From IMG/VR virus record IMGVR_UViG_3300045988_169405: a stretch of 64,000 nt of DNA; one strand, 5' to 3'. The DNA is from a virus. Below the pieces are notes generated by a model. It made no database searches and was not told the DNA's origin. It saw nothing but the letters and a program-made list of their open reading frames with translations. Numbering within the stretch: position 1 is the first letter of the stretch; each line of letters opens with the position of its first letter. Below are positions 520 to 45,168 of the stretch, in pieces. The position numbers were made by a program, and so were the translations under genes.

Positions 520-2121
520 CTAGCTCTTGTTTTCCCACGGGAAACCAGCATCAATACCACGCTCAAGAAGCGGGATAAGCTCGAACCCCTTATCAGTCAG
601 ACCACCAAGCGACCAGCGGCGCTCCTTAGCCTCCATATGAGCCGCCTCATACCCGGCAAGGTTCCAGGTGAAGACATTCACATGCGCCGGTACATAGCGG
701 TCAAGAACCTCATCGACAGTGTACTCATCACCCCAGTACCTACGGGCATTAAGGCTCTGCTCATCACTGATAATGAGGATACGGTCATGACCATTATAAG
801 ACTCACGCAGAGCCTTAGCGGTAGCGGTACCACCACGAGCCTCCGGCATGTCATTCTCAACAACACGCAACAGGTCATTAGAGGTAATCTTAACCTTCTC
901 AACCTGAGTATCGAACGCCACAACATCAACGCGACCCTTATTCTTCAGAGCAAAGGCGGCGGCGAACATGTTAGCGGCATCCTGACGCGACAGAGAGCTA
1001 CGCTCAGAAAGGCGGCTACCCATAGAGCCGGAACGGTCAAGAAGAAGCAGGGTGCGACCCGGCAACTCCGGCACATTATCCAGCACACTATTAGCACCCG
1101 CCTGTAGTGCGGCGGCAAAATCAAGCGGCGCGTTCTTGTAAGCGGCAAGGAAGTTAATCGGCATAGTCTTCGCACGCACAATAGCTTCCTCATCACGCAA
1201 CTTACGGTTAATCTTCTCGATAGTATCGTAAGACACACCCGCGTTGCTGATACGGCTCAGGTTCATACGAAGCGCCTGGTAACCCATATGGTCAATGAGG
1301 TTATCCCAAACCTCAGCCGGGATAACACCAATAGTACCCGCAATTACCTCATGGGTAAGACGCGCATCCTTGATGATACGGTCAGCGGATTCCTTATCGG
1401 AAAGAACCTTAATCTTCTCATCCTTGGTGAGGTTCAAGAAGTCACGGCGTGCCTTCATGACGGACAGCTCTTCAAGGTTCGGCTCACGACCGTAAGCAGA
1501 ATCAATGATAGCGCCGTACAGGTTCTCACGGTACTTATCAGACGGCTTCGGGTGAACAAGGTTCACCACATCAGCAAGAGTGAAAGCACCCTTAGCCATA
1601 CGACCCTGCCACTTCAAAACACTGTTCTCAGTAACAGACCTATTCAGGGCATCAGCAATACCACGCTTCACAGCAGACGGCACCTTACGACCAAAACGAG
1701 AGAACCAATAAGCCAGGAACTCACTAGACTCATCCAGACGACCAATAGCGGCAGAAACAAGGGCACGGTTACCACCACTCAAACCAGCCTCCAGGCGCGC
1801 ATGAACAGCTTCAGCGGCAATCATTGCCGGTACAGCACGAAGACCCGCCTCCTGGCGAAGCCAACCAATCAGACCCTCAAGCCAAACATTATCGTCTGCA
1901 ACCTGCTTCACAAGACCAGCGATACGGTCAGCACGCGCGTCAGCCTTCTCATAGAACGTATCCTCATTCAGCGAAGTAACGGCGGCTAGGAACAGCTCAG
2001 CCTTCGGGGTACGCTTCCAGCCGGTACCACCCTCAAAGGTGCTGATACGCTCGCCGGTAGTGTCAATCTTATTAGTCGCCTTGTTAGCGGTCACATGGTT
2101 CTTAGTGTTGAATCGTCCCAT
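520..2121 (-). CDS. rsr: Ro60/Rsr-like protein: N-terminal TROVE-like domain + C-terminal von Willebrand A domain (MIDAS motif D-R-S-G-S: LLLDRSGSMGS)
   Basis: 533 aa; the vWA DxSxS motif is read directly; TROVE+vWA architecture and size match Ro60; candidate Y-RNA repeats lie adjacent. Confidence 0.6.
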   Translation of the reverse strand: MGRFNTKNHVTANKATNKIDTTGERISTFEGGTGWKRTPKAELFLAAVTSLNEDTFYEKADARADRIAGLVKQVADDNVWLEGLIGWLRQEAGLRAVPAMIAAEAVHARLEAGLSGGNRALVSAAIGRLDESSEFLAYWFSRFGRKVPSAVKRGIADALNRSVTENSVLKWQGRMAKGAFTLADVVNLVHPKPSDKYRENLYGAIIDSAYGREPNLEELSVMKARRDFLNLTKDEKIKVLSDKESADRIIKDARLTHEVIAGTIGVIPAEVWDNLIDHMGYQALRMNLSRISNAGVSYDTIEKINRKLRDEEAIVRAKTMPINFLAAYKNAPLDFAAALQAGANSVLDNVPELPGRTLLLLDRSGSMGSRLSERSSLSRQDAANMFAAAFALKNKGRVDVVAFDTQVEKVKITSNDLLRVVENDMPEARGGTATAKALRESYNGHDRILIISDEQSLNARRYWGDEYTVDEVLDRYVPAHVNVFTWNLAGYEAAHMEAKERRWSLGGLTDKGFELIPLLERGIDAGFPWENKS

Positions 2122-2249
2122 GATAGGGGTTCCTTCCTATAGTTACTGTTTGGGGTGGCTGGTTGATGCCCCTTATCTGTTGTGCTTGCTTGTTTTTGGG
2201 TAAAAGAAATGGGGGTGCGGAGAACCAGCCATGTCGAGGTTAGTTACTA

Positions 2250-2455
2250 GCCGACAAAGGCGACCGGTTTCGTTGCAAATTTACAGATTTGTTTGAAGTA
2301 ACTCGACAAATTCACATCCACACCCCCAAAGGGGAGCAAATATATTACACTATATTCGCTAGTGCCCGTAGCAAGTTCGACCCTGCGTGTCACCTTTCAG
2401 TGCAACACCCCCTATTGGGGTGCGGGCTTTGAAGTGTTGGAATTGTAGAGAATGG
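2250..2455 (+). ncRNA. candidate Y-RNA-like / tRNA-like ncRNA, repeat unit 1 of 3 (strand uncertain)
   Basis: tandem ~235-bp repeat; T-arm-like GCAAGTTCGACCCTGCG at ~2370; hairpin CACCCC-ctatt-GGGGTG; adjacent to the Ro60 gene. Confidence 0.35.
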
Positions 2456-2464
2456 AGCTTATCG

Positions 2465-2700
2465 AGGGTGTTTGACTAGTCTAAAGGCGACCAGTTCATG
2501 ATTCTAAGCAATTCCCAAAATTGTTGAAGTAACTCGATAATCGCGCTTCTACAATTCCAAGTGTAGCACAGGGGTTATCCCCCTGCAAGTGTTCATAACA
2601 GGTTTGACTCTGTGTGCCACCTTTCGGCGCAACACCCCCTGCGGGGTATGAACTGTTATTGTGTTGAAGGTACAGAGAATTAGTCTCAATCGAGGTTGTA
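2465..2700 (+). ncRNA. candidate Y-RNA-like / tRNA-like ncRNA, repeat unit 2 of 3
   Basis: same unit; ACAGGTTTGACTCTGTG T-arm-like; hairpin ACCCC-ctgc-GGGGT (covariation versus unit 1). Confidence 0.35.
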
Positions 2701-2704
2701 TTTA

Positions 2705-2940
2705 ACTAGCCCGCCGGTTATTAGCCAGCAGGTGATTAGTTGTTAGCAATTCCCATAATTGTTTAGAAGTAACTCGATTGAATCGCTTCTGTACTCTCAA
2801 GTTTATTATAGCAAACCTTGTTTAGGCCTGCAAGTGCCTGTAGCAGGTTCGACTCTGCGTGCTCTGAGCACCCACCCTTATGGTGGTACAGGCTCCATTG
2901 GGCTCGCGCCCCCTTGGATAGCAACCGCAAGTCTTTCAGG
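2705..2940 (+). ncRNA. candidate Y-RNA-like / tRNA-like ncRNA, repeat unit 3 of 3
   Basis: same unit; GCAGGTTCGACTCTGCG (GGTTCGA T-loop-like); hairpin CACC-cttat-GGTG. Confidence 0.35.
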
Positions 2941-3037
2941 TTTCCCTGTCGTCCTTACACATATAACTATAACGTACCTGCGTGGGGTATGCAAGTCAAA
3001 AACTAACTATTTTCGTATGGGCTTCACCACACCCCTT

Positions 3038-3388
3038 TTACTGGGTGACATATGCTTCGATTCGACCGTTGCCGCAGTGGATAATGTGAGTGTCCTTAGC
3101 CTTGACGCGGGTGTTAGTGGTGTTGGTGTACATGTTGGTGGTTGCCGCTAGGTTGTATCGGAGCCAGTGGGTAGCGTTGCCGCCCTTTTCCATGTTTCGG
3201 ATTACGGGCTTGAGGTTGCTTGAGTTGAGGCGTTCTAGGGTTGCGCGGCGGGTGATGGTGGTGGTGGGTCGCCCCTTCTTGTCATTGAGTCGGAGGGCGG
3301 TGATGGTGCCGGTCTTCTTGTCGTATTCAATGGTGATGCGCTGACTGGCTCGCTTGTTGCGGCGGCTAAAAAGCTTGAAGATGTTCAT
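3038..3388 (-). CDS. hypothetical basic protein (116 aa)
   Basis: ORF; degenerate copy of the promoter module at ~2945-3010. Confidence 0.55.
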   Translation of the reverse strand: MNIFKLFSRRNKRASQRITIEYDKKTGTITALRLNDKKGRPTTTITRRATLERLNSSNLKPVIRNMEKGGNATHWLRYNLAATTNMYTNTTNTRVKAKDTHIIHCGNGRIEAYVTQ

Positions 3389-3838: not shown

Positions 3839-3902
3839 AGGTGGTGAATCCTATAGGGGTTCCTATAGGGGGTTTCAGGGTTTCCCCCTTTGCTTATGTA
3901 AC

Positions 3903-3960
3903 TATTATGCCACACTCTAGCGGGGTACGCAAGTCGAAACAATGTGAACCTGGTCACATT
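3903..3960 (-). promoter_or_regulatory. conserved promoter module (ATGTGAACCTGGTCACAT + TTGCGT-N17-CATAAT)
   Basis: copy 2. Confidence 0.6.
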
Positions 3961-4028: not shown

Positions 4029-4442
4029 TTAGGCGGTTAGCTCCAGCGGCTCCGGGTCAGCGTACCGCATAACAATGTTGCCGCTGTAACGCTCAAGGTG
4101 GGTAATCTTGAACTCAAGCGGGAAAGTCTGAGCATCAACCATAAGAGCCGCAATGTCACGAAGGATAGGTGAGGTGAGCGGGAACTCTGCCTCAAACTCA
4201 TAACCGCCGGTGCTAATCGTCACAAACAGGGACTTCATGGAATTACCAACGCCGTCCGGGTCTTCGTCCTGTCGAATCTGGAAGCCGGTAGCGGTCAAGT
4301 CCTGGTCGTTGATAGTGGCAATATCTTCAGGGTCGAACTTACCGTCAAAGAAGCCGAGGATAGTGAAACCAGAAACGAAAATACTGTTTTCGTACATGAT
4401 AGAGGGGTTCTCCTTGCGATTGGAAAATCTGACATGTACCAC
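4029..4442 (-). CDS. hypothetical protein (137 aa)
   Basis: ORF followed by hairpin terminator 3983-4012. Confidence 0.6.
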   Translation of the reverse strand: MVHVRFSNRKENPSIMYENSIFVSGFTILGFFDGKFDPEDIATINDQDLTATGFQIRQDEDPDGVGNSMKSLFVTISTGGYEFEAEFPLTSPILRDIAALMVDAQTFPLEFKITHLERYSGNIVMRYADPEPLELTA

Positions 4443-4639
4443 CCGGTAGGTGAATCACCTGCTAGATATTCAAGGTGGCACCCACCCAGTATACCAGTAC
4501 TGCTGACTGGGTGCCAACCCGCGCCTGTGTGTCCCGTATCGGGGCAGGTTTAGATGTCGCATATCTTACGGCTCGTTATGGACACTCACGAGTTAGCACA
4601 ACGTGATTCAGGGCGCTCTTTTTTATTCTTCAAAAATCC

Positions 4640-5060
4640 ACCTCCAGAACCCTTATAGTCCCCGTCAGGGTAACCATCTATTAGCTATCTACAATCCACC
4701 CCCTATCTAATCCAGGGTGAACCTATATAACCTTCTCGCGCACGCGCGTAATAATCTTTATCCCCATCTATAGTCATTATGCCCCAAATACCCCGTTTTA
4801 CCCCGGTATTACAAGGAACAACCACCCCCAAGACGGGGCGGAAACTCCCAAATAGTCACCGGTAGAGCCCTTATAGTCACCCCCAAATAGTCCCCGCAAA
4901 CTCCCAAATAACCACCCCCAAAAAGCCCTAATAGTCACCCAAGGGCCCTTATAGTCACCGGGGTGCCCTGGCATTGATTGGGCGCTTCTATACCTTGCCG
5001 CTAGAGCCCTTATAGTCACCCCTGCATTGAGCTACAAGAGTCCCCTATAGTCACCGCGCC
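4640..5060. repeat. iteron-like direct repeats, (G)CCCTTATAGTCACC in at least 6 copies plus CTCCCAAATA(G/A) sub-repeats
   Basis: copies at ~4650, 4867, 4926, 4945, 5006, 5042; lies in an ~800-bp noncoding region. Confidence 0.7.
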
Positions 5061-5235
5061 ATAGAAGCCGCTCTAAGTAGCGCAAATAATGTGAAGTAAT
5101 CATGAGTCATAAACCCTAAATAATCCCCACAGTGGGCTTCCTGTACCTTCCTATAGGGTCTTTATAGGCATAGTAATACCCCCATAAGATTCAATGACCT
5201 TACGGGGGTATTACTTATAGATGGGGTGTTAGGCG

Positions 5236-6216
5236 CTACTGGTCGCTTTTCTTGATGTACTTTTGAGCTTCACTCTTGGGTACATGGAACGCAATTTTTG
5301 CGCGTCCAGCATCCCAAGCGTTCACGGCACAGCCCGTGTCACGACCTTCTACGCAGAGCGGCTGTCCATCAAAAACAGTCAGCCGAGTGCGATACAAGGG
5401 GGTGTACTCGACATACGCCTTACCAGGCTCCTGGTCTTCAATAATAAAGTACTTATCAGGCGTGTAGGTGACTTCCTGCTTAGCCGGTGATTCACCTTCC
5501 TGCACCCAAGCATATAGGGGCTTCGTAGGTTTATTGGCACTCTTGGCACTATCAAGTAGAGTATCGCTAGGGGTGCCGCCCGTGTTCTGGATTTCGTGTG
5601 CTATCTGCTGTTGCCCATTATTACTATCCAGCTCTCGTAGTGGGTACTTGATGGTCACGGTCTGGTGCGTACCATTTTCAACCTTCGTATCAGGCATTAG
5701 CTCCAACGCCTTAACATTAGGGCTTACAACGGCAAGGGTTACCAGGGCAATGCTGACAATAATCTTTAGGATTGAACTAACCATAATCTTGCCGTATTCC
5801 TTGTAGCCATATTCCCATAGGGCGTGCGGGTTTTTATGAACCCACCAATCATGGGTGAGGCGGTCGCACCCGAACAATATTTCAAAACCTTCAAAACCTG
5901 GGTCTTCCGGCACGCCTTCGGGAATGTCCTTATTGAAAAAGAACGCCGGTATGATTGCGGCAATAATTAGCCCACCAATAACGTAAGGGACAACCTGGGC
6001 ATCTAGCTTTAGAGTCACCGCAACAGCAATAAGCATGAAGATGAAACTGAAACTTTTCAGCTCTGAAGGCACAGGGTCAAAGGACGGCAGAGGCCCCTTG
6101 AAATTTCGTTCTTTGAACTCTTTAATTCCTTTGGTGAGCCGCCATGCAACTATCGCCTTATAAACTTGAAACGGAATGAAGGCAATGAGCATTAGCAACA
6201 GGAGCGTTAGGAACAT
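5236..6216 (-). CDS. membrane protein (several N-terminal TM helices + C-terminal soluble domain)
   Basis: hydrophobic segments in the translation. Confidence 0.55.
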   Translation of the reverse strand: MFLTLLLLMLIAFIPFQVYKAIVAWRLTKGIKEFKERNFKGPLPSFDPVPSELKSFSFIFMLIAVAVTLKLDAQVVPYVIGGLIIAAIIPAFFFNKDIPEGVPEDPGFEGFEILFGCDRLTHDWWVHKNPHALWEYGYKEYGKIMVSSILKIIVSIALVTLAVVSPNVKALELMPDTKVENGTHQTVTIKYPLRELDSNNGQQQIAHEIQNTGGTPSDTLLDSAKSANKPTKPLYAWVQEGESPAKQEVTYTPDKYFIIEDQEPGKAYVEYTPLYRTRLTVFDGQPLCVEGRDTGCAVNAWDAGRAKIAFHVPKSEAQKYIKKSDQ

Positions 6217-6329: not shown

Positions 6330-8030
6330 CGGTGGGAAGGGTGCATGACTGTTGCTGAGTTTATTGATATTGCGCCCATGATTTAATATTGATAATATTA
6401 GATACATTAGCCGCAACCCAAAGACACTAGAGAGGAGGGTGCGTTGGCAAAGAACAAAACCTATAGGGCGTTTGTCGCGCGCCCAACCCATGTTCTCGAC
6501 TTGAACGGTGAGCTACTGGAAGCCGCGCCTATCATGGCTCAGCTCACTACTGAGGTTCGCGGCATTTCGTCTTACGCAACTTACGTTACCCGTAACGACA
6601 CTCAGCTTGAGGCGGGTCTGGCAACGGCTGGCACTGCCCAGCCTGCGGTTGTGGGTCGCCGCGCGGGTATCACTATGCCCGAGTTTCTTGTAACCGGCAA
6701 GTCTGGTAGGTCGCGTAAAGAATGGCTGGTTAGGTATAACGTCGTCACAGCTTTCCGTTCCTGGCAGGAACGCATCAAAGCCGTAAACGGTGAAAGTGAT
6801 AAGTATGTTTCGCAGGGCTGGAAACGCACCGTGAATGACTCGGCCCCCACGTATGGCGAGGGCACTATCAATCTCGGTGCTGTAGACCGTTGCTACGCCG
6901 TAATTGAGAACAATCCGTTTGTTGATGGTGAGATTACCCTCAAGATGGTTATCCGTGGCGCATGGTATCGCCTATTTTTCCCCTTCGATAATACCCGCTT
7001 CACTGAGGGTAAGGTCACTTTGCCACTCATCAAGGTTCAGGACGGCGCGCCCGTTTTCATTTTCTCCGTGGTGACGGATAACCCGATTGTCCAGTTCTCT
7101 GGTGACTATGTTATCGGCGTGGATGTTGGTATCAATGATTATGCTACCGTCGTGGTTCGCAATACTGTAACGGGTGAAATCACTCACCAGACGACACTCT
7201 CTCAGCGTGTCCATTCGCTCTGGAATAGTGTTCGTGCGTCTGAGCGGCAGGTGCGTCAGCTTAGAGAGAAAGCCGCCCGGTTGTTGAATGACCGCCCATA
7301 TGAGCGTCAAGCAATTATGGCGGCACTAGACGAGGCACAACTCCACCGCAAGGCGGCCTCTAGGAAGAAACGTGAACTCGCTATCCTTGCCGCCCAGGAA
7401 ATTGCTTATTTGTCGCATTTCTTTGGTAATGCTGTTGTTGCTGTTGAAGACCTCAGCTGGATTACGAATACCATGCAGAACGGCAGGTGGAACAGGGGCG
7501 CGTTCACCCAATGGCTCACCCATTACGTCAGTCAGAATGGTGGGTGGGTCGTATCTGTGAGCTCTTTTAATACGTCGCAGGTATGCCATGTGTGCGGTGT
7601 GGAAGTCACACACCCTGAACACAGGGTATCTATATGCTCTAAGCACGGCATGATGGATAGGGACGTGAACGCCGCCGCAAACATTGCGGCGCGCGCTGTA
7701 CCGAAGGTTGAGAAGGCGCGTAAGAAGCGTTCCAGGAACAGTAAGCTCCAACCGCAGGCTCCTCTGAAAACCCCGGTAGCTAGGGGCTCTTTGAAGTACC
7801 CTGGTCGTGATAGGACGAAGAACGCGCCTACACCAAAAAGGAAGAACCACTCCCAAGTTTCTAGGGAGGTGACTCTTCCTTCTAGCCCCGCTAGGGCACA
7901 AGCAAAATGCTTGGAAGCCAGCGTACTAGCGGACTGCCTCGCATACGGTGTTGCAGGGACTTCTCAAGCGGCTATCAAACAGGGAACCATAACCAAATAT
8001 AGGTTATGTAGCCCTATTTGATACAGTATT
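6330..8030 (+). mobile_element. putative IS605-family (tnpB-only) insertion; ends not precisely defined
   Basis: opposite strand to every other gene; AT-rich left flank; right end abuts the stop of 8014-9099. Confidence 0.55.
6444..8021 (+). CDS. tnpB: IS605/IS1341-family TnpB (OrfB) RuvC-like nuclease; TTG start. The long C-terminal tail is probably read-through over the omega-RNA/right-end region
   Basis: RuvC-I IGVDVGINDYATVVV, RuvC-II AVEDLSW, Zn ribbon CHVCG...CSKHG, RuvC-III DRDVNAAANIA; only plus-strand gene; AT-rich 5' flank. Confidence 0.8.
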   Translation: MAKNKTYRAFVARPTHVLDLNGELLEAAPIMAQLTTEVRGISSYATYVTRNDTQLEAGLATAGTAQPAVVGRRAGITMPEFLVTGKSGRSRKEWLVRYNVVTAFRSWQERIKAVNGESDKYVSQGWKRTVNDSAPTYGEGTINLGAVDRCYAVIENNPFVDGEITLKMVIRGAWYRLFFPFDNTRFTEGKVTLPLIKVQDGAPVFIFSVVTDNPIVQFSGDYVIGVDVGINDYATVVVRNTVTGEITHQTTLSQRVHSLWNSVRASERQVRQLREKAARLLNDRPYERQAIMAALDEAQLHRKAASRKKRELAILAAQEIAYLSHFFGNAVVAVEDLSWITNTMQNGRWNRGAFTQWLTHYVSQNGGWVVSVSSFNTSQVCHVCGVEVTHPEHRVSICSKHGMMDRDVNAAANIAARAVPKVEKARKKRSRNSKLQPQAPLKTPVARGSLKYPGRDRTKNAPTPKRKNHSQVSREVTLPSSPARAQAKCLEASVLADCLAYGVAGTSQAAIKQGTITKYRLCSPI

Positions 8031-9590: not shown

Positions 9591-10364
9591 CTACTTCTTG
9601 TTGTTTGCCTTCAGCTTTGCAAGCTCATCATCCAGGGCGGAATCAACAGCCAGAGAGTCCAGCTCATCGAAGCCGTCCTTTACCGGGTCAGCCATAATCT
9701 CCTGACGACCCTGAAGACGTGCCTCCTCACGGGCGATACGCTCTTCCCACTCATTCATAGGCGAGCTCAGGTTAGTACCATTGACGTTGATACTCTCAGT
9801 AGCGTCAAGGATACGACCCATAGCCTCATTCGTCTTATGACGTGCCAGAAGCTCATCACGCTGGTGGTGAGCCGCCGCCAGCTTCTCACGTGCATCATTC
9901 AGCTGACCCTTCAGAGAATCAACACGCGGGGTAGCAACCTTAATCTGCTCCTCAAGCTTCTCAGCAGTCTTCTCAGCGTTAGTACGGTTCTTCAGGGCGA
10001 TACGTGCCAGACCGTCAAACTTATCAGCCTGAGCCTCAGCCTTGGTACGTGCCGGGTCACCAACCTCAAGCTTCTCAGCCTGAGCACGGAACTCATCAGC
10101 CTTATCAGAAGCCGCCTGAGCCTTAACCTGCCACTCCTGAACCTTGCCCTGTTCCTTCTTATGGTCAGACTCCATGATGCGCAGGTTGCCGATAACCTCA
10201 GCAACATTACCCTCCGCTACACGAATCTCTTCCTTGTAGTCACGGATAAGCTGGTTCAGCATCTCCTGCGGGTCTTCCGCCTTATCAATTGCGGTGTTAA
10301 TCTTTGCGCGAATGAGGTTGTTGAAACGTGCAAAAATGCTGTTCTTGTTCTGGTTCTTACCCAT
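9591..10364 (-). CDS. pspA: PspA/IM30 (phage shock protein A / Vipp1 / LiaH) family coiled-coil protein
   Basis: the N-terminus MGKNQNKNSIFARFNNLIRAKINTAIDKAEDPQEMLNQLIRDYKEEI matches the PspA N-terminal helix (MGIFSRF..INALLEKAEDPQK); ~255 aa coiled coil; start chosen at the ATG preceded by GAAAGG. Confidence 0.75.
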   Translation of the reverse strand: MGKNQNKNSIFARFNNLIRAKINTAIDKAEDPQEMLNQLIRDYKEEIRVAEGNVAEVIGNLRIMESDHKKEQGKVQEWQVKAQAASDKADEFRAQAEKLEVGDPARTKAEAQADKFDGLARIALKNRTNAEKTAEKLEEQIKVATPRVDSLKGQLNDAREKLAAAHHQRDELLARHKTNEAMGRILDATESINVNGTNLSSPMNEWEERIAREEARLQGRQEIMADPVKDGFDELDSLAVDSALDDELAKLKANNKK

Positions 10365-10625
10365 TGTGGGTTTACCTAACCTTTCGTTGGTTAATGTTGT
10401 GGAACATGATTCACGGTCGCCCATCCTGTAGGGCTTCCTGTCTTTCGTGTGACCTTTTAGGGGTCATACTCAGAATATCAGGTTCCGGGGTTAAAATCTA
10501 GTGTATTACTGTATCGTCACCGACTGTTCACCTGTTGGAGCCAACCCTGCATACAAGGGGAAGGTGCTTCTTGTCTAGGGTAAATACCTAGCCAAGTTGC
10601 GAAATACATTCACTATAAGTCTTCC

Positions 10626-12462: not shown

Positions 12463-12554
12463 TTGGTATACTTCCTCTCTAGAAGTAGTAGTAGATATAA
12501 GGTCTAGCCATGTTTAGCTAGTACCTTTGAGGTTTCCCTCTTGCTTATGTAACC

Positions 12555-12612
12555 ATTATGGCACACTCTAAACCCCTATGCAAGCCGAAATCAAGTGAAA
12601 TAGCTCACATAG
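12555..12612 (-). promoter_or_regulatory. conserved promoter module (TTGCAT-N17-CATAAT; AGTGAAATAGCTCACA)
   Basis: copy 4. Confidence 0.6.
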
Positions 12613-31150: not shown

Positions 31151-32728
31151 CTAGAACTCACCATCATCTTCTGGGTCACCTAGATTCAGAGGCTCTAGAA
31201 CAGGCTCAGCTTCCTTCTTAGTATCCTTAGCGGCGTTATTGATTCCGCTACCGATAGCTCGACCGGTTACAGTTGCCTGAATCAGGTCACGAACATCAAG
31301 TCCTAGACCGGCGGTAACCTTATCCATGCTGGTCATGATGTCGCCAACCATCTGCCCGGTGTTACCTTCACCGTACATGGTAATGCTATCAACGTTATTC
31401 AGCGGCTCAGATACGGCGCGTGCAACTTCAGGTAGGACATTGACAAGCATCTCGATAACAGCGGCATCCTTCATCTTGAGCATTGCTTCCGCCTTCTTGT
31501 CTAGACCGTCTGCTTCTGCTTCAAGCTTGAGGCGTACTGCTTCTGCTTCTGCTTCACCGCGTAGGCGGATTGCGTCTGCTTCTGCTTCTGCCGTCATCTT
31601 GAGAGCTTCCGCTTCCTGCTGGCGGCGGTATGCTTCCGCTTCAGCGGTCATCTTCAGCACTTCTGCTTCCTGCTGGCGGCGGTACGCCTCAGCTTCAGAC
31701 TTCTTCATGCTCTCAAACAGTTCAGCCTGTGCGCGCTGTTCACGTGCTCGACGTTCAGTGTTCGCGGTTTCTTCAACCTCAGCAACTAGGGTCTGCTTGC
31801 GGACTTCAACTTCCTTAGCCTTGACCAGCGCTTCCTTTTCCTGTCGGACAATGTTAGCGTTAGCGCGGGCGGCTTCGGTTCGGCTTCGCTGGTTCTCGAA
31901 CTCAGTCTCGAACGCGGCTTCAGCGATTGCTCGTTCCTTCTCAGCTTCAGCTTTGAGCTGGCTCTTAGAAATTTCGAGTTCGTTCTGCCTCTTAGCGATT
32001 TCCTTATCAGCGGCGACACGTGCGTCGTTTGCGAGCTTTTCAGAGCTTGCCTGCTGTTCCTCAATCTTCTGGGTTGCGATAGCCTTAGCGGTTGCCGCTT
32101 CCTGTCGAATCTTTTCGGTATTGTCAGCACCAAGGTTGTCGATAACACCCTTATCGTCACGGACGGTCTGGATGTTGAACGCTACGATTTCTAGACCCAT
32201 TTCCTCTAGGTCGTTCGTCGCGTTTTCCTGAACCTTGTTAGCGAGCTGTTGCCTATCTTGGACGATAGCCTTCAGTTCCATTTCACCAATGATGGAGCGT
32301 AGGTGACCTTCAAGGGTTTCACGTACCGAGTCAGCGATTTCAATATCAGTCCTACCGAGGAAGTTACGGGCGGCAACCTCGAACAGTTCCTTACGGTCTA
32401 GACCGATACGTACCTTCACTTCAGCTTCAGCCTGCACGTTGATAAAGTCGTTAGTAGGGGTGCTACCGTTCGTCTTCACATCAATAGATACCATGCTTGC
32501 GGTCATGGAGTCTACACGCTCAATGAACGGGACACGCCAACCAGTCTTACCCTGTAGTACACGGATACCACGGCGACCTGAGATGACCTTCACCTCACCG
32601 GGGCTTGCCGATACGATACCTGCCATGAAGATTGCCACACCGATACCAATGATGATGAGTGCGGCTACGGCGATAATTAGTAGGTTCGCGATTTGCATTA
32701 TGTAGTTATTCTTTCTGTCATGGGACAA
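31151..32728 (-). CDS. flotillin / SPFH (band-7) domain protein: N-terminal TM, SPFH domain and a long E/A-rich coiled coil
   Basis: TM MQIANLLIIAVAALIIIGIGVAIF, then GEVKVISGRRG...; EA repeats resemble FloT/YqiK; likely start at MQIANLL (32698). Confidence 0.65.
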   Translation of the reverse strand: MSHDRKNNYIMQIANLLIIAVAALIIIGIGVAIFMAGIVSASPGEVKVISGRRGIRVLQGKTGWRVPFIERVDSMTASMVSIDVKTNGSTPTNDFINVQAEAEVKVRIGLDRKELFEVAARNFLGRTDIEIADSVRETLEGHLRSIIGEMELKAIVQDRQQLANKVQENATNDLEEMGLEIVAFNIQTVRDDKGVIDNLGADNTEKIRQEAATAKAIATQKIEEQQASSEKLANDARVAADKEIAKRQNELEISKSQLKAEAEKERAIAEAAFETEFENQRSRTEAARANANIVRQEKEALVKAKEVEVRKQTLVAEVEETANTERRAREQRAQAELFESMKKSEAEAYRRQQEAEVLKMTAEAEAYRRQQEAEALKMTAEAEADAIRLRGEAEAEAVRLKLEAEADGLDKKAEAMLKMKDAAVIEMLVNVLPEVARAVSEPLNNVDSITMYGEGNTGQMVGDIMTSMDKVTAGLGLDVRDLIQATVTGRAIGSGINNAAKDTKKEAEPVLEPLNLGDPEDDGEF

Positions 32729-45026: not shown

Positions 45027-45097
45027 GATGAGCAACCTTTCGGTAGGTAGATAGTGAACTTATCGCTAGGGGCTTTCCCCCTTGCTTATATAACTAT

Positions 45098-45160
45098 TAT
45101 GGCACAATCATAACCCCTGCGCAAGTTAAAAATCTGTGAATTAGCCCACATAGGGGTTGT
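45098..45160 (-). promoter_or_regulatory. conserved promoter module (TGTGAATTAGCCCACA)
   Basis: copy. Confidence 0.6.
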
Positions 45161-45168
45161 ATGCATAT

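Follow-up and report, generated by a model that had tools for sequence, protein, structure and literature searches.

An iteron-type repeat module in large elements from human oral metagenomes and a putative initiator-like protein encoded beside its second copy

Introduction

What does a noncoding region of about 800 bp with many direct repeats do in a large element catalogued as viral? The region occupies positions 4443 to 5235 of a 64,000-nt stretch of DNA, IMG/VR record IMGVR_UViG_3300045988_169405, which we call the window. The window belongs to a 201-kb contig from a human oral metagenome, has a GC content of about 50%, and carries all of its genes except one on the minus strand. The original prediction took the region for a candidate replication origin or partition site. 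For jumbo phages and giant extrachromosomal elements that have not been cultivated, replication origins and initiators have, to our knowledge, almost never been identified at the sequence level. Here we describe a module at 5215–4616 (minus strand) that is probably an iteron-type cis element, bound by an initiator served in trans and acting as an auxiliary origin or a control array. Judged from sequence comparisons and structure models, its repeats are most likely the binding array for an initiator-like protein of 776 amino acids (aa), which is encoded next to a second copy of the module.

Direct repeats in one orientation

The region was described as noncoding, and this holds: the gap between the stop codon of a gene for a 326-aa protein and the ATG (4397–4395) of a gene for a 122-aa protein contains no conserved open reading frame (ORF). 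Small ORFs within the gap were rejected, as they are not conserved and their indels are not multiples of three. At least six spaced copies of an iteron-like repeat had been claimed. The 14-mer in question has three exact copies and three with one mismatch: CCCTTATAGTCACC occurs exactly at 4868, 4946, and 5007, with one mismatch at 4650, 4926, and 5042, with two at 4847, and with three at 4882. Window-wide, 19 sites match CCCTTATAGTCACC with up to three mismatches (6.1 expected), a number reached in 0 of 100 shuffles. The core GACTATNNGGG is found eight times in the 64 kb, against 0.5 expected and a maximum of three in 300 shuffles, and every one of the eight copies falls within 4650–5052 on the minus strand. 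Nested CTCCCAAATA(G) repeats, which had been noted separately, proved to be variant units of the same family (4843–4860, 4899–4916, and 4882–4895).

The minus-strand consensus of the repeat is GGkGACTATwwGGGmTyT, or sGGkGACTATwwGGGmTyT for the units of the array, and GGGGTGACTATAAGGGCTCTA is an example of the 21-bp unit. A unit of about 21 nt corresponds to three heptads on a 7-nt lattice, and the spacings are 14, 20–23, 35, 61, 82, and 197 nt. Units are not palindromic. Iteron origins carry at least three tandem direct repeats of about 17–22 bp in one orientation; here nine units lie between 5056 and 4843 and one more at 4664–4646, all on the minus strand. We built a position-weight matrix (PWM) from the units and scanned the window and 25 related loci (26 loci) at a threshold of at least 10 bits. 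Each array gave 3–11 matches, the sequences outside the arrays gave two in total, and the opposite strand gave at most one. By eye only, short stretches resembling Chi, KOPS, SRS, matS, and telomere-like sequences were also seen (GGGGGTGG, GCGCGTG, TATAAGGG, GTGAC, and TTAGGG/TTTGGGG).

Conservation of the module and its two copies

The module is conserved in relatives: more than 20 related contigs, which come from human oral metagenomes, carry it. All of these contigs have a gap of 760–920 nt with the same architecture, and the homologues of the 326-aa protein are 65–95% identical. When metagenome contigs were scanned with an 18-mer, many relatives of 215–304 kb came to light, and three contigs (256–291 kb) contain two arrays. 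We call the copy in the window A and the other copy B. In these three large contigs, A and B are mutually inverted and 117–141 kb apart, which is 46–49% of the contig. B is a paralogue of the whole module, including the array, the CCTTGTAATACCGGGG stretch, ACTATAGATGGGGATAAAGATTATTACGCGCGTGCGCGAGA, and GGGGTGGrTTTTTGAAGAA. A 189-nt core is 91–97% identical among A copies, leaving aside that of L057, which has a 'type II' allele, and the flanking 326-aa protein is 72–95% identical. In these alignments the module core is conserved at least as well as the flanking proteins. The number of units per array varies from 7 to 11; whole stretches of units are gained or lost, and the gains measure about 20–80 nt. 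Six short-read contigs (L038, L041, L047, L049, L050, and L066) terminate inside or just before the array, and therefore the repeat breaks assemblies.

Two core alleles exist, and they are independent of location: the 'B-type' allele is present in the A copy of L057, and the 'A-type' allele in the B copies of L074 and L076. Furthermore, L058 has an A-specific spacer inside its B array. In L061 (5100–7200), the flank of B with the primase and glutaredoxin-like (grx) genes is joined through the array to the flank of A with the 122-aa and Ro60 genes. L061 is a 9-kb contig of 2.8x coverage and may represent either a genome-inversion isomer or an assembly chimera across the repeat. Since alleles do not track location, and given the L058 spacer and the L061 join, A and B exchange sequence; this pattern indicates gene conversion between the two copies.

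An initiator-like protein encoded beside B

A lone reverse gene that encodes 776 aa follows B directly and reads in the same direction as the repeats. B is thus laid out as iterons, AT-rich DNA, and rep gene, the canonical order of an iteron replicon. Divergent from B are the grx gene, a gene for a 144-aa protein, and a gene for a DnaG-type primase, which matches Zn_ribbon_DnaG, DNAG_N, and Toprim. We also considered B as a global gene-strand switch and rejected this, because only the initiator-like gene is reversed there.

An AlphaFold2 model of the 776-aa protein has a mean predicted local distance difference test (pLDDT) score of 55, with values of 65–82 across residues ~155–380. This part is modelled as two alpha-beta-alpha-alpha-beta-beta winged-helix units. 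In a Foldseek search of the PDB, the top 43 matches were all iteron-binding initiators, with noise below them. The best match was to RctB domains 2–3 (E = 8e-4), RepE54 matched from E = 6e-3, and a complex of Rep, iteron, and DNA unwinding element was also matched. A homologue with 45% identity was modelled as well, and the top 45 matches of this second model were all RepE, Rep, or pi. The 776-aa protein is predicted from these models to be a putative tandem winged-helix initiator like RepE, pi, and RctB. At the level of fold, B therefore has a candidate for its cognate initiator at its side; no such homologue adjoins the window copy A.

Homologues of the 776-aa protein with 38–49% identity are encoded on contigs of 236–360 kb, some of them in IMG/VR. 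These distant relatives keep the synteny, in which the primase gene, a small gene, and the grx gene read away from a gap of about 660 nt and the initiator-like gene reads away on the other side. The gap contains G/T-rich direct repeats followed by two AT-rich blocks. In L083, L084, and L086, the initiator-like proteins are 46–49% identical and the units have diverged to GTGACTTTTTGGTAG or GTGGTTTTTCGGTAG (GTGACTTTTTGGTAG in L086), at the same place and with AT blocks after them. The repeat thus diverges together with the initiator-like protein while position and architecture are kept, which is the pattern that would be expected of co-evolving sites and their binder.

Some further observations concern the surroundings of B. 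A conserved promoter-like CTTACA-N17-CATAAG lies on the C-rich strand at ~800–840 of L067 (minus-strand reading) and at the same position in all B loci; it points from the side of the initiator gene into the B module and may represent transcription into the origin. In L076 (219–4092), genes for a PP2C phosphatase, a Ser/Thr kinase, and an Rpf-type transglycosylase with LysM adjoin the initiator-like gene. Beyond the primase, 3–8 kb from B, weak VirD4/TraD-like, TcpC-like, and TcpF/VirB4-like proteins are encoded, and the ATPase family matches are far below curated cut-offs. In L067 (2532–6952) and L072 (4124–10805), the genes beside B encode the DnaG primase, an 874-aa VirD4/TraD/TcpA-like ATPase, a TcpC-like protein, a weak TcpF/VirB4-like ATPase, and a GmrSD_C nuclease. 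These genes make up a conjugation-like module beside B, in contigs catalogued as viral. The 874-aa ATPase had no homologue in INPHARED or PLSDB.

Anatomy of the module

The module measures about 640 bp (5215–4616, minus strand). Its features are as follows.

5172 to 5215, minus strand: 5' boundary hairpin, 19-bp stem AGTAATACCCCCGTAAGG...CTTATGGGGGTATTACT, without a U-tract (z = -5.6)
5125 to 5159, minus strand: second, weaker hairpin ACCCTATAGG...CTGTGGGG, with one compensatory pair (z = -1.0, weak support)
5129 to 5110, minus strand: degenerate unit after the second hairpin
4843 to 5056, minus strand: iteron array of nine ~21-nt units in one orientation, from the repeat search and the PWM
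5056 to 5038, 5021 to 5003, 4960 to 4942, 4940 to 4922, 4917 to 4899, 4896 to 4876, 4882 to 4864, and 4861 to 4843, minus strand: array units
4839 to 4922, minus strand: nearly invariant 84-nt array block TTTGGGGGTGGTTATTTGGGAGTTTGCGGGGACTATTTGGGGGTGACTATAAGGGCTCTACCGGTGACTATTTGGGAGTTTCCG, common to A and B copies in the alignments and the identity matrix
4822 to 4841, minus strand: GC-rich hairpin CCGCCCC-GTCTT-GGGGGTGG (z = -3.2)
4734 to 4816, minus strand: conserved core, with CCTTGTAATACCGGGG..GGGG, AT block 1, and then the alternating run CGCGCGTGCGCG; invariant in A and B
4780 to 4750, minus strand: AT block 1, ATAATGACTATAGATGGGGATAAAGATTATTA, within the conserved core
4646 to 4664, minus strand: solitary iteron unit CGGGGACTATAAGGGTTCT, 197 nt downstream of the array
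4616 to 4645, minus strand: AT block 2, GGAGGTGGATTTTTGAAGAATAAAAAAGAG, at the 3' end of the shared module

In relatives without the 326-aa gene, the module again opens with this 19-bp hairpin, which directly follows the gene before it. Because this hairpin persists with the module where the 326-aa gene is absent, we take it as the 5' boundary. Its pairs are preserved in relatives through one-sided changes and a paired deletion. The 'type II' allele has an unrelated GC-rich segment in place of the GC-rich hairpin at 4822 to 4841. The conserved core at 4734 to 4816 holds the least stable 30-mer of the module. On the opposite strand of AT block 1, within the block invariant in A and B, there is a DnaA-box-like TTATCCCCA that matches 8/9 positions; the background of such sites is 0.33 per kb, and the consensus used may not be that of the host. 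The solitary unit at 4646 to 4664 is present in the A copy only and is lost in L039, and AT block 2 has a positional counterpart, TTTTTAAAAATAA, in distant relatives. The sense strand has 29 runs of three or more G residues, 7–9 nt apart. The module contains no GATC (Dam) sites.

What copy A might do

Since B has the layout of an iteron replicon together with a primase operon, and A is a near-complete cis copy without an initiator gene, we read 5215–4616 as an initiator-binding module served in trans. Initiator monomers supplied from the B locus would bind the units of the A array. A might then serve as an auxiliary origin through melting of the adjoining AT-rich blocks, or the bound A array might pair with B or titrate against it and thereby set how often initiation occurs, in the manner of P1 incA and F incC. 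We infer binding, melting, and replication activity in this scheme from the features described above. We lean toward the auxiliary origin, because it is the complete module, with its AT blocks and CG run, and not the iterons alone, that is nearly invariant at A. As for the original prediction, its reading as iterons of a candidate origin is favoured by the conserved array, by the paralogue upstream of the initiator-like gene and beside the primase, and by the diverged units with their kept architecture. Its implied identification of this very locus as the origin is not supported, as the initiator gene is outside the window and distant relatives have B-type loci only.

Several findings weigh against an initiator-bound module at A. 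No initiator homologue was found in the window or beside any A copy. Exact-unit scans of the contigs of distant relatives found a B-type locus only, one per contig; this makes B the ancestral copy and A a duplicate confined to the window's lineage. Cumulative GC skew across the window has no inflection at A, and A lies inside a co-directional gene block. The spacing of the units follows the 7-nt lattice, and helical phasing is not clean. AT blocks are short (~20–30 bp, 67–77% AT), although no 30-mers in the module are less stable, and the DnaA-box-like site is the only one in it. As for the 776-aa protein, searches of Pfam, NCBIfam, and PDB sequences gave no match (TRAP at E = 0.07, which is non-significant), and the models are modest, with mean pLDDT values of 51–55 and TM-scores of ~0.4–0.5. 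The sense strand is strongly G-rich, with a GC skew of +0.35 to +0.6 over ~400 nt, so that a role of RNA, an R-loop, or a G-quadruplex is possible; involvement of an R-loop or G-quadruplex would be compatible with an origin.

Other explanations

A might be purely a copy-control or handcuffing array and not an origin, with the same initiator being titrated by it or pairing it with B, so that initiation is restrained. A second iteron cluster that acts as a negative regulator is established plasmid biology, and known examples of control arrays are P1 incA, F incC, and the regulatory sites of Vibrio cholerae chromosome 2. This would suit an initiator that is encoded at B only, distant relatives with a single B-type locus, and the smooth GC skew of the window at A. 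However, the known arrays flank their rep gene, whereas A is 117–141 kb away, and the AT blocks and CG run are nearly invariant at A, which is beyond what titration needs, although they could be kept up passively by gene conversion from B. We therefore regard pure control as doubtful. Equally doubtful is the reading that A and B are two antipodal, inverted copies of one iteron origin that share one divergent RctB/RepE-like initiator, with recombination between them flipping half of the genome. Should it be correct, contigs catalogued as jumbo phages would include an isomerising plasmid-type replicon with conjugation-like genes. It seems barely credible that the inverted copies serve mainly for recombination that turns half of the genome around, with their conservation being homogenisation only. 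The L061 join, the alleles exchanged between A and B together with the A-specific spacer in the B array of L058, and the many contigs that break inside the array all agree with recombination; yet L061, at 9 kb and 2.8x, may be an assembly chimera, and recombination leaves unexplained both the motif-level conservation and the position beside the initiator gene in single-copy relatives.

Direct-repeat arrays also characterise clt and the centromeres of types Ib and II, and the array could be a centromere or translocase-loading site bound by a partition adaptor or by a VirD4/TraD/FtsK-like ATPase, as in parC/parS, Streptomyces clt, or KOPS. Genes for the 874-aa coupling-protein-like ATPase and the TcpC-like and TcpF/VirB4-like proteins lie 3–8 kb from B, and the two arrays are polar and inverted. 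Nevertheless, the ATPase matches are far below the curated cut-offs, and in every relative it is the RepE/RctB-like gene that is physically linked to the array, while the gene beside the primase differs in L083. Among the scanned neighbours of A and B there was no match to the ParA, ParM, ParB, or ParR families; a partition centromere would adjoin parA or parM and an adaptor gene. Together with the non-palindromic units, this speaks against the partition site that had been offered as one option, and we consider a centromere or loading site highly improbable. A role at the level of RNA or transcription is very unlikely as well. In that case the G-rich sense transcript would serve as a protein sponge or leader, an R-loop or G-quadruplex would form, or the bound array would be a polar roadblock or insulator. 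The G-rich strand is indeed the one that is sense for the gene following each copy, and it has its 29 G-runs and strong GC skew; the whole 636-nt sense RNA has z = -8.4 against -1.5 for the antisense, and the 5' hairpin is conserved through structure-preserving changes. However, the value of -8.4 stems from the flanking hairpins, as the array alone has z = -1.1; covariation is weak (RNAalifold term -2.78), Rfam gave no match, and A and B share no conserved promoter or terminator and lie in different transcriptional contexts. As a structured noncoding RNA, only the boundary hairpin is well supported. An R-loop-primed origin would fit the initiator-bound module, not this alternative.

Some other candidates were rejected. 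A CsrA-type sponge or structured noncoding RNA is not supported; the constant part of the unit is not GGA. A T7/SP6-like promoter array (minus strand GGTGACTATAAGGG) was dismissed, as across the window and the 25 loci the motif occurs in the A and B arrays alone and is not dispersed upstream of many genes; the likeness of GGTGACTATA to SP6 or T7 promoters is superficial. Likewise, the module is not an omega-RNA or the end of the neighbouring TnpB element, because TnpB is absent here in relatives that retain the module.

Comparison with known iteron systems

The closest likeness of the initiator-bound module is to mini-F oriS/RepE, R6K gamma-ori/pi, and pPS10 RepA, in which tandem repeats of ~19–22 bp in one orientation and AT-rich DNA lie immediately 5' of the initiator gene. 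RepE and pi also share the initiator fold, the tandem winged helix predicted for the 776-aa protein. Unlike RepE, pi, and RepA (~250–300 aa), the initiator-like proteins here have 776–860 aa and no sequence-family match. The replicons also differ: those described here are 200–360 kb and viral according to IMG/VR, with a new unit consensus, short AT blocks, and, in the case of the window copy, more than 100 kb between the repeats and the initiator gene. Vibrio cholerae chromosome 2 has ori2/RctB and the remote site crtS. Here, no sites like the 39-mers were recognised and the module has no GATC; crtS is an unrelated sequence, whereas the remote site described here is a near-complete duplicate of the origin module. 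Membership of the 776-aa protein in the RctB family is not established by sequence. P1 (incC, repA, incA) is similar in being a phage-associated, plasmid-type iteron replicon with two clusters and one initiator, one cluster being regulatory. The P1 clusters flank repA within ~1.5 kb, but those here are inverted and 117–141 kb apart.

Flanking genes and the hairpin at 4476–4516

The sequences that adjoin the module are listed below.

4395 to 4615, minus strand: leader of the 122-aa gene, outside the module, with a promoter-like site in the hairpin and the ribosome-binding site and ATG at 4415–4395
5236 to 6216, minus strand: upstream flanking gene, 326 aa, membrane-like, without a family match and absent in some relatives
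4029 to 4397, minus strand: downstream flanking gene, 122 aa, acidic, without a family match and not an initiator

A strong hairpin had been placed in the repeat region at 4474–4515. The hairpin itself exists, at 4476–4516, with 14-nt arms that are 86% complementary (z = -2.5), and it overlaps a promoter-like TTGGCA-N18-TATACT. Its assignment to the repeat region was not borne out. In relatives with a 357–360-aa gene inserted after the repeats, the hairpin stays directly 5' of the 122-aa gene. It is therefore separate from the module and belongs to the leader of that gene.

The element and its other features

IMG/VR catalogues the relatives as viral, and no capsid or terminase gene was seen in the regions examined. 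The Rpf-type transglycosylase and actinophage-like Ro60 matches suggest an actinobacterial host. Identity with Inocles was ruled out by GC content, which is 24–32% in Inocles and ~50% in the window. A DNA search of INPHARED and a search of IMG/VR with the flanking proteins gave no match, and a 15-mer scan of IMG/VR gave single chance matches only. An 18-mer scan of GTDB genomes gave three single chance matches only, and there are thus no host or prophage copies in them. In the literature on iterons in jumbo or huge phages, we found nothing relevant.

A TnpB/Cas12f-like ORF at 6444–8021 is the sole plus-strand gene of the window. It is missing at this site in relatives and is found elsewhere in L048; by this comparison, it is a recent, window-specific insertion of the IS200/IS605 type. 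The element also encodes membrane-stress proteins, namely homologues of PspA/IM30 (9591–10424) and flotillin/SPFH (31151–32728), both on the minus strand. An array of 17 tRNA genes occupies 20537–23659 (minus strand). One of the tRNAs (22913–22990) was called with a 4-base anticodon (taac) and may be a frameshift suppressor or a degenerate tRNA.

A promoter module recurs at more than 20 sites of the window (e.g., 3870–3958, 12521–12609, and 45067–45164, minus strand). It consists of a TGTGA-N6-TCACA palindrome (CRP/FNR-like) ~10 nt 5' of TTGCAT-N17-CATAAT, a short GC hairpin, and a conserved 5' untranslated region (..CACTATCTACCGAAAGG..ATG). At 2121–3038 (minus strand), a promoter is followed by three tandem units of ~235 nt, directly 5' of the Ro60/TROVE+vWA gene (520–2121). 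Each unit contains a tRNA T-arm-like GAGTCGAACC/GGGTCGAAC stretch. Rfam gave no match to the units, which are probably YrlA-type Y-RNA genes.

Implications

It is now possible to name a cis module with defined limits, together with a candidate for its initiator, in a family that is widespread in the human mouth; family libraries recognise neither. In practice, short-read assemblies break at the array, and chimeric joins may arise there. The duplicated, inverted, and approximately antipodal arrangement is unusual for iteron replicons and provides a testable model of multi-origin or remote-site control. Furthermore, plasmid-type iteron/Rep logic together with VirD4-, TcpC-, and VirB4-like genes raises the possibility that these 'jumbo phages' are perhaps phage-plasmids or plasmid-like elements.
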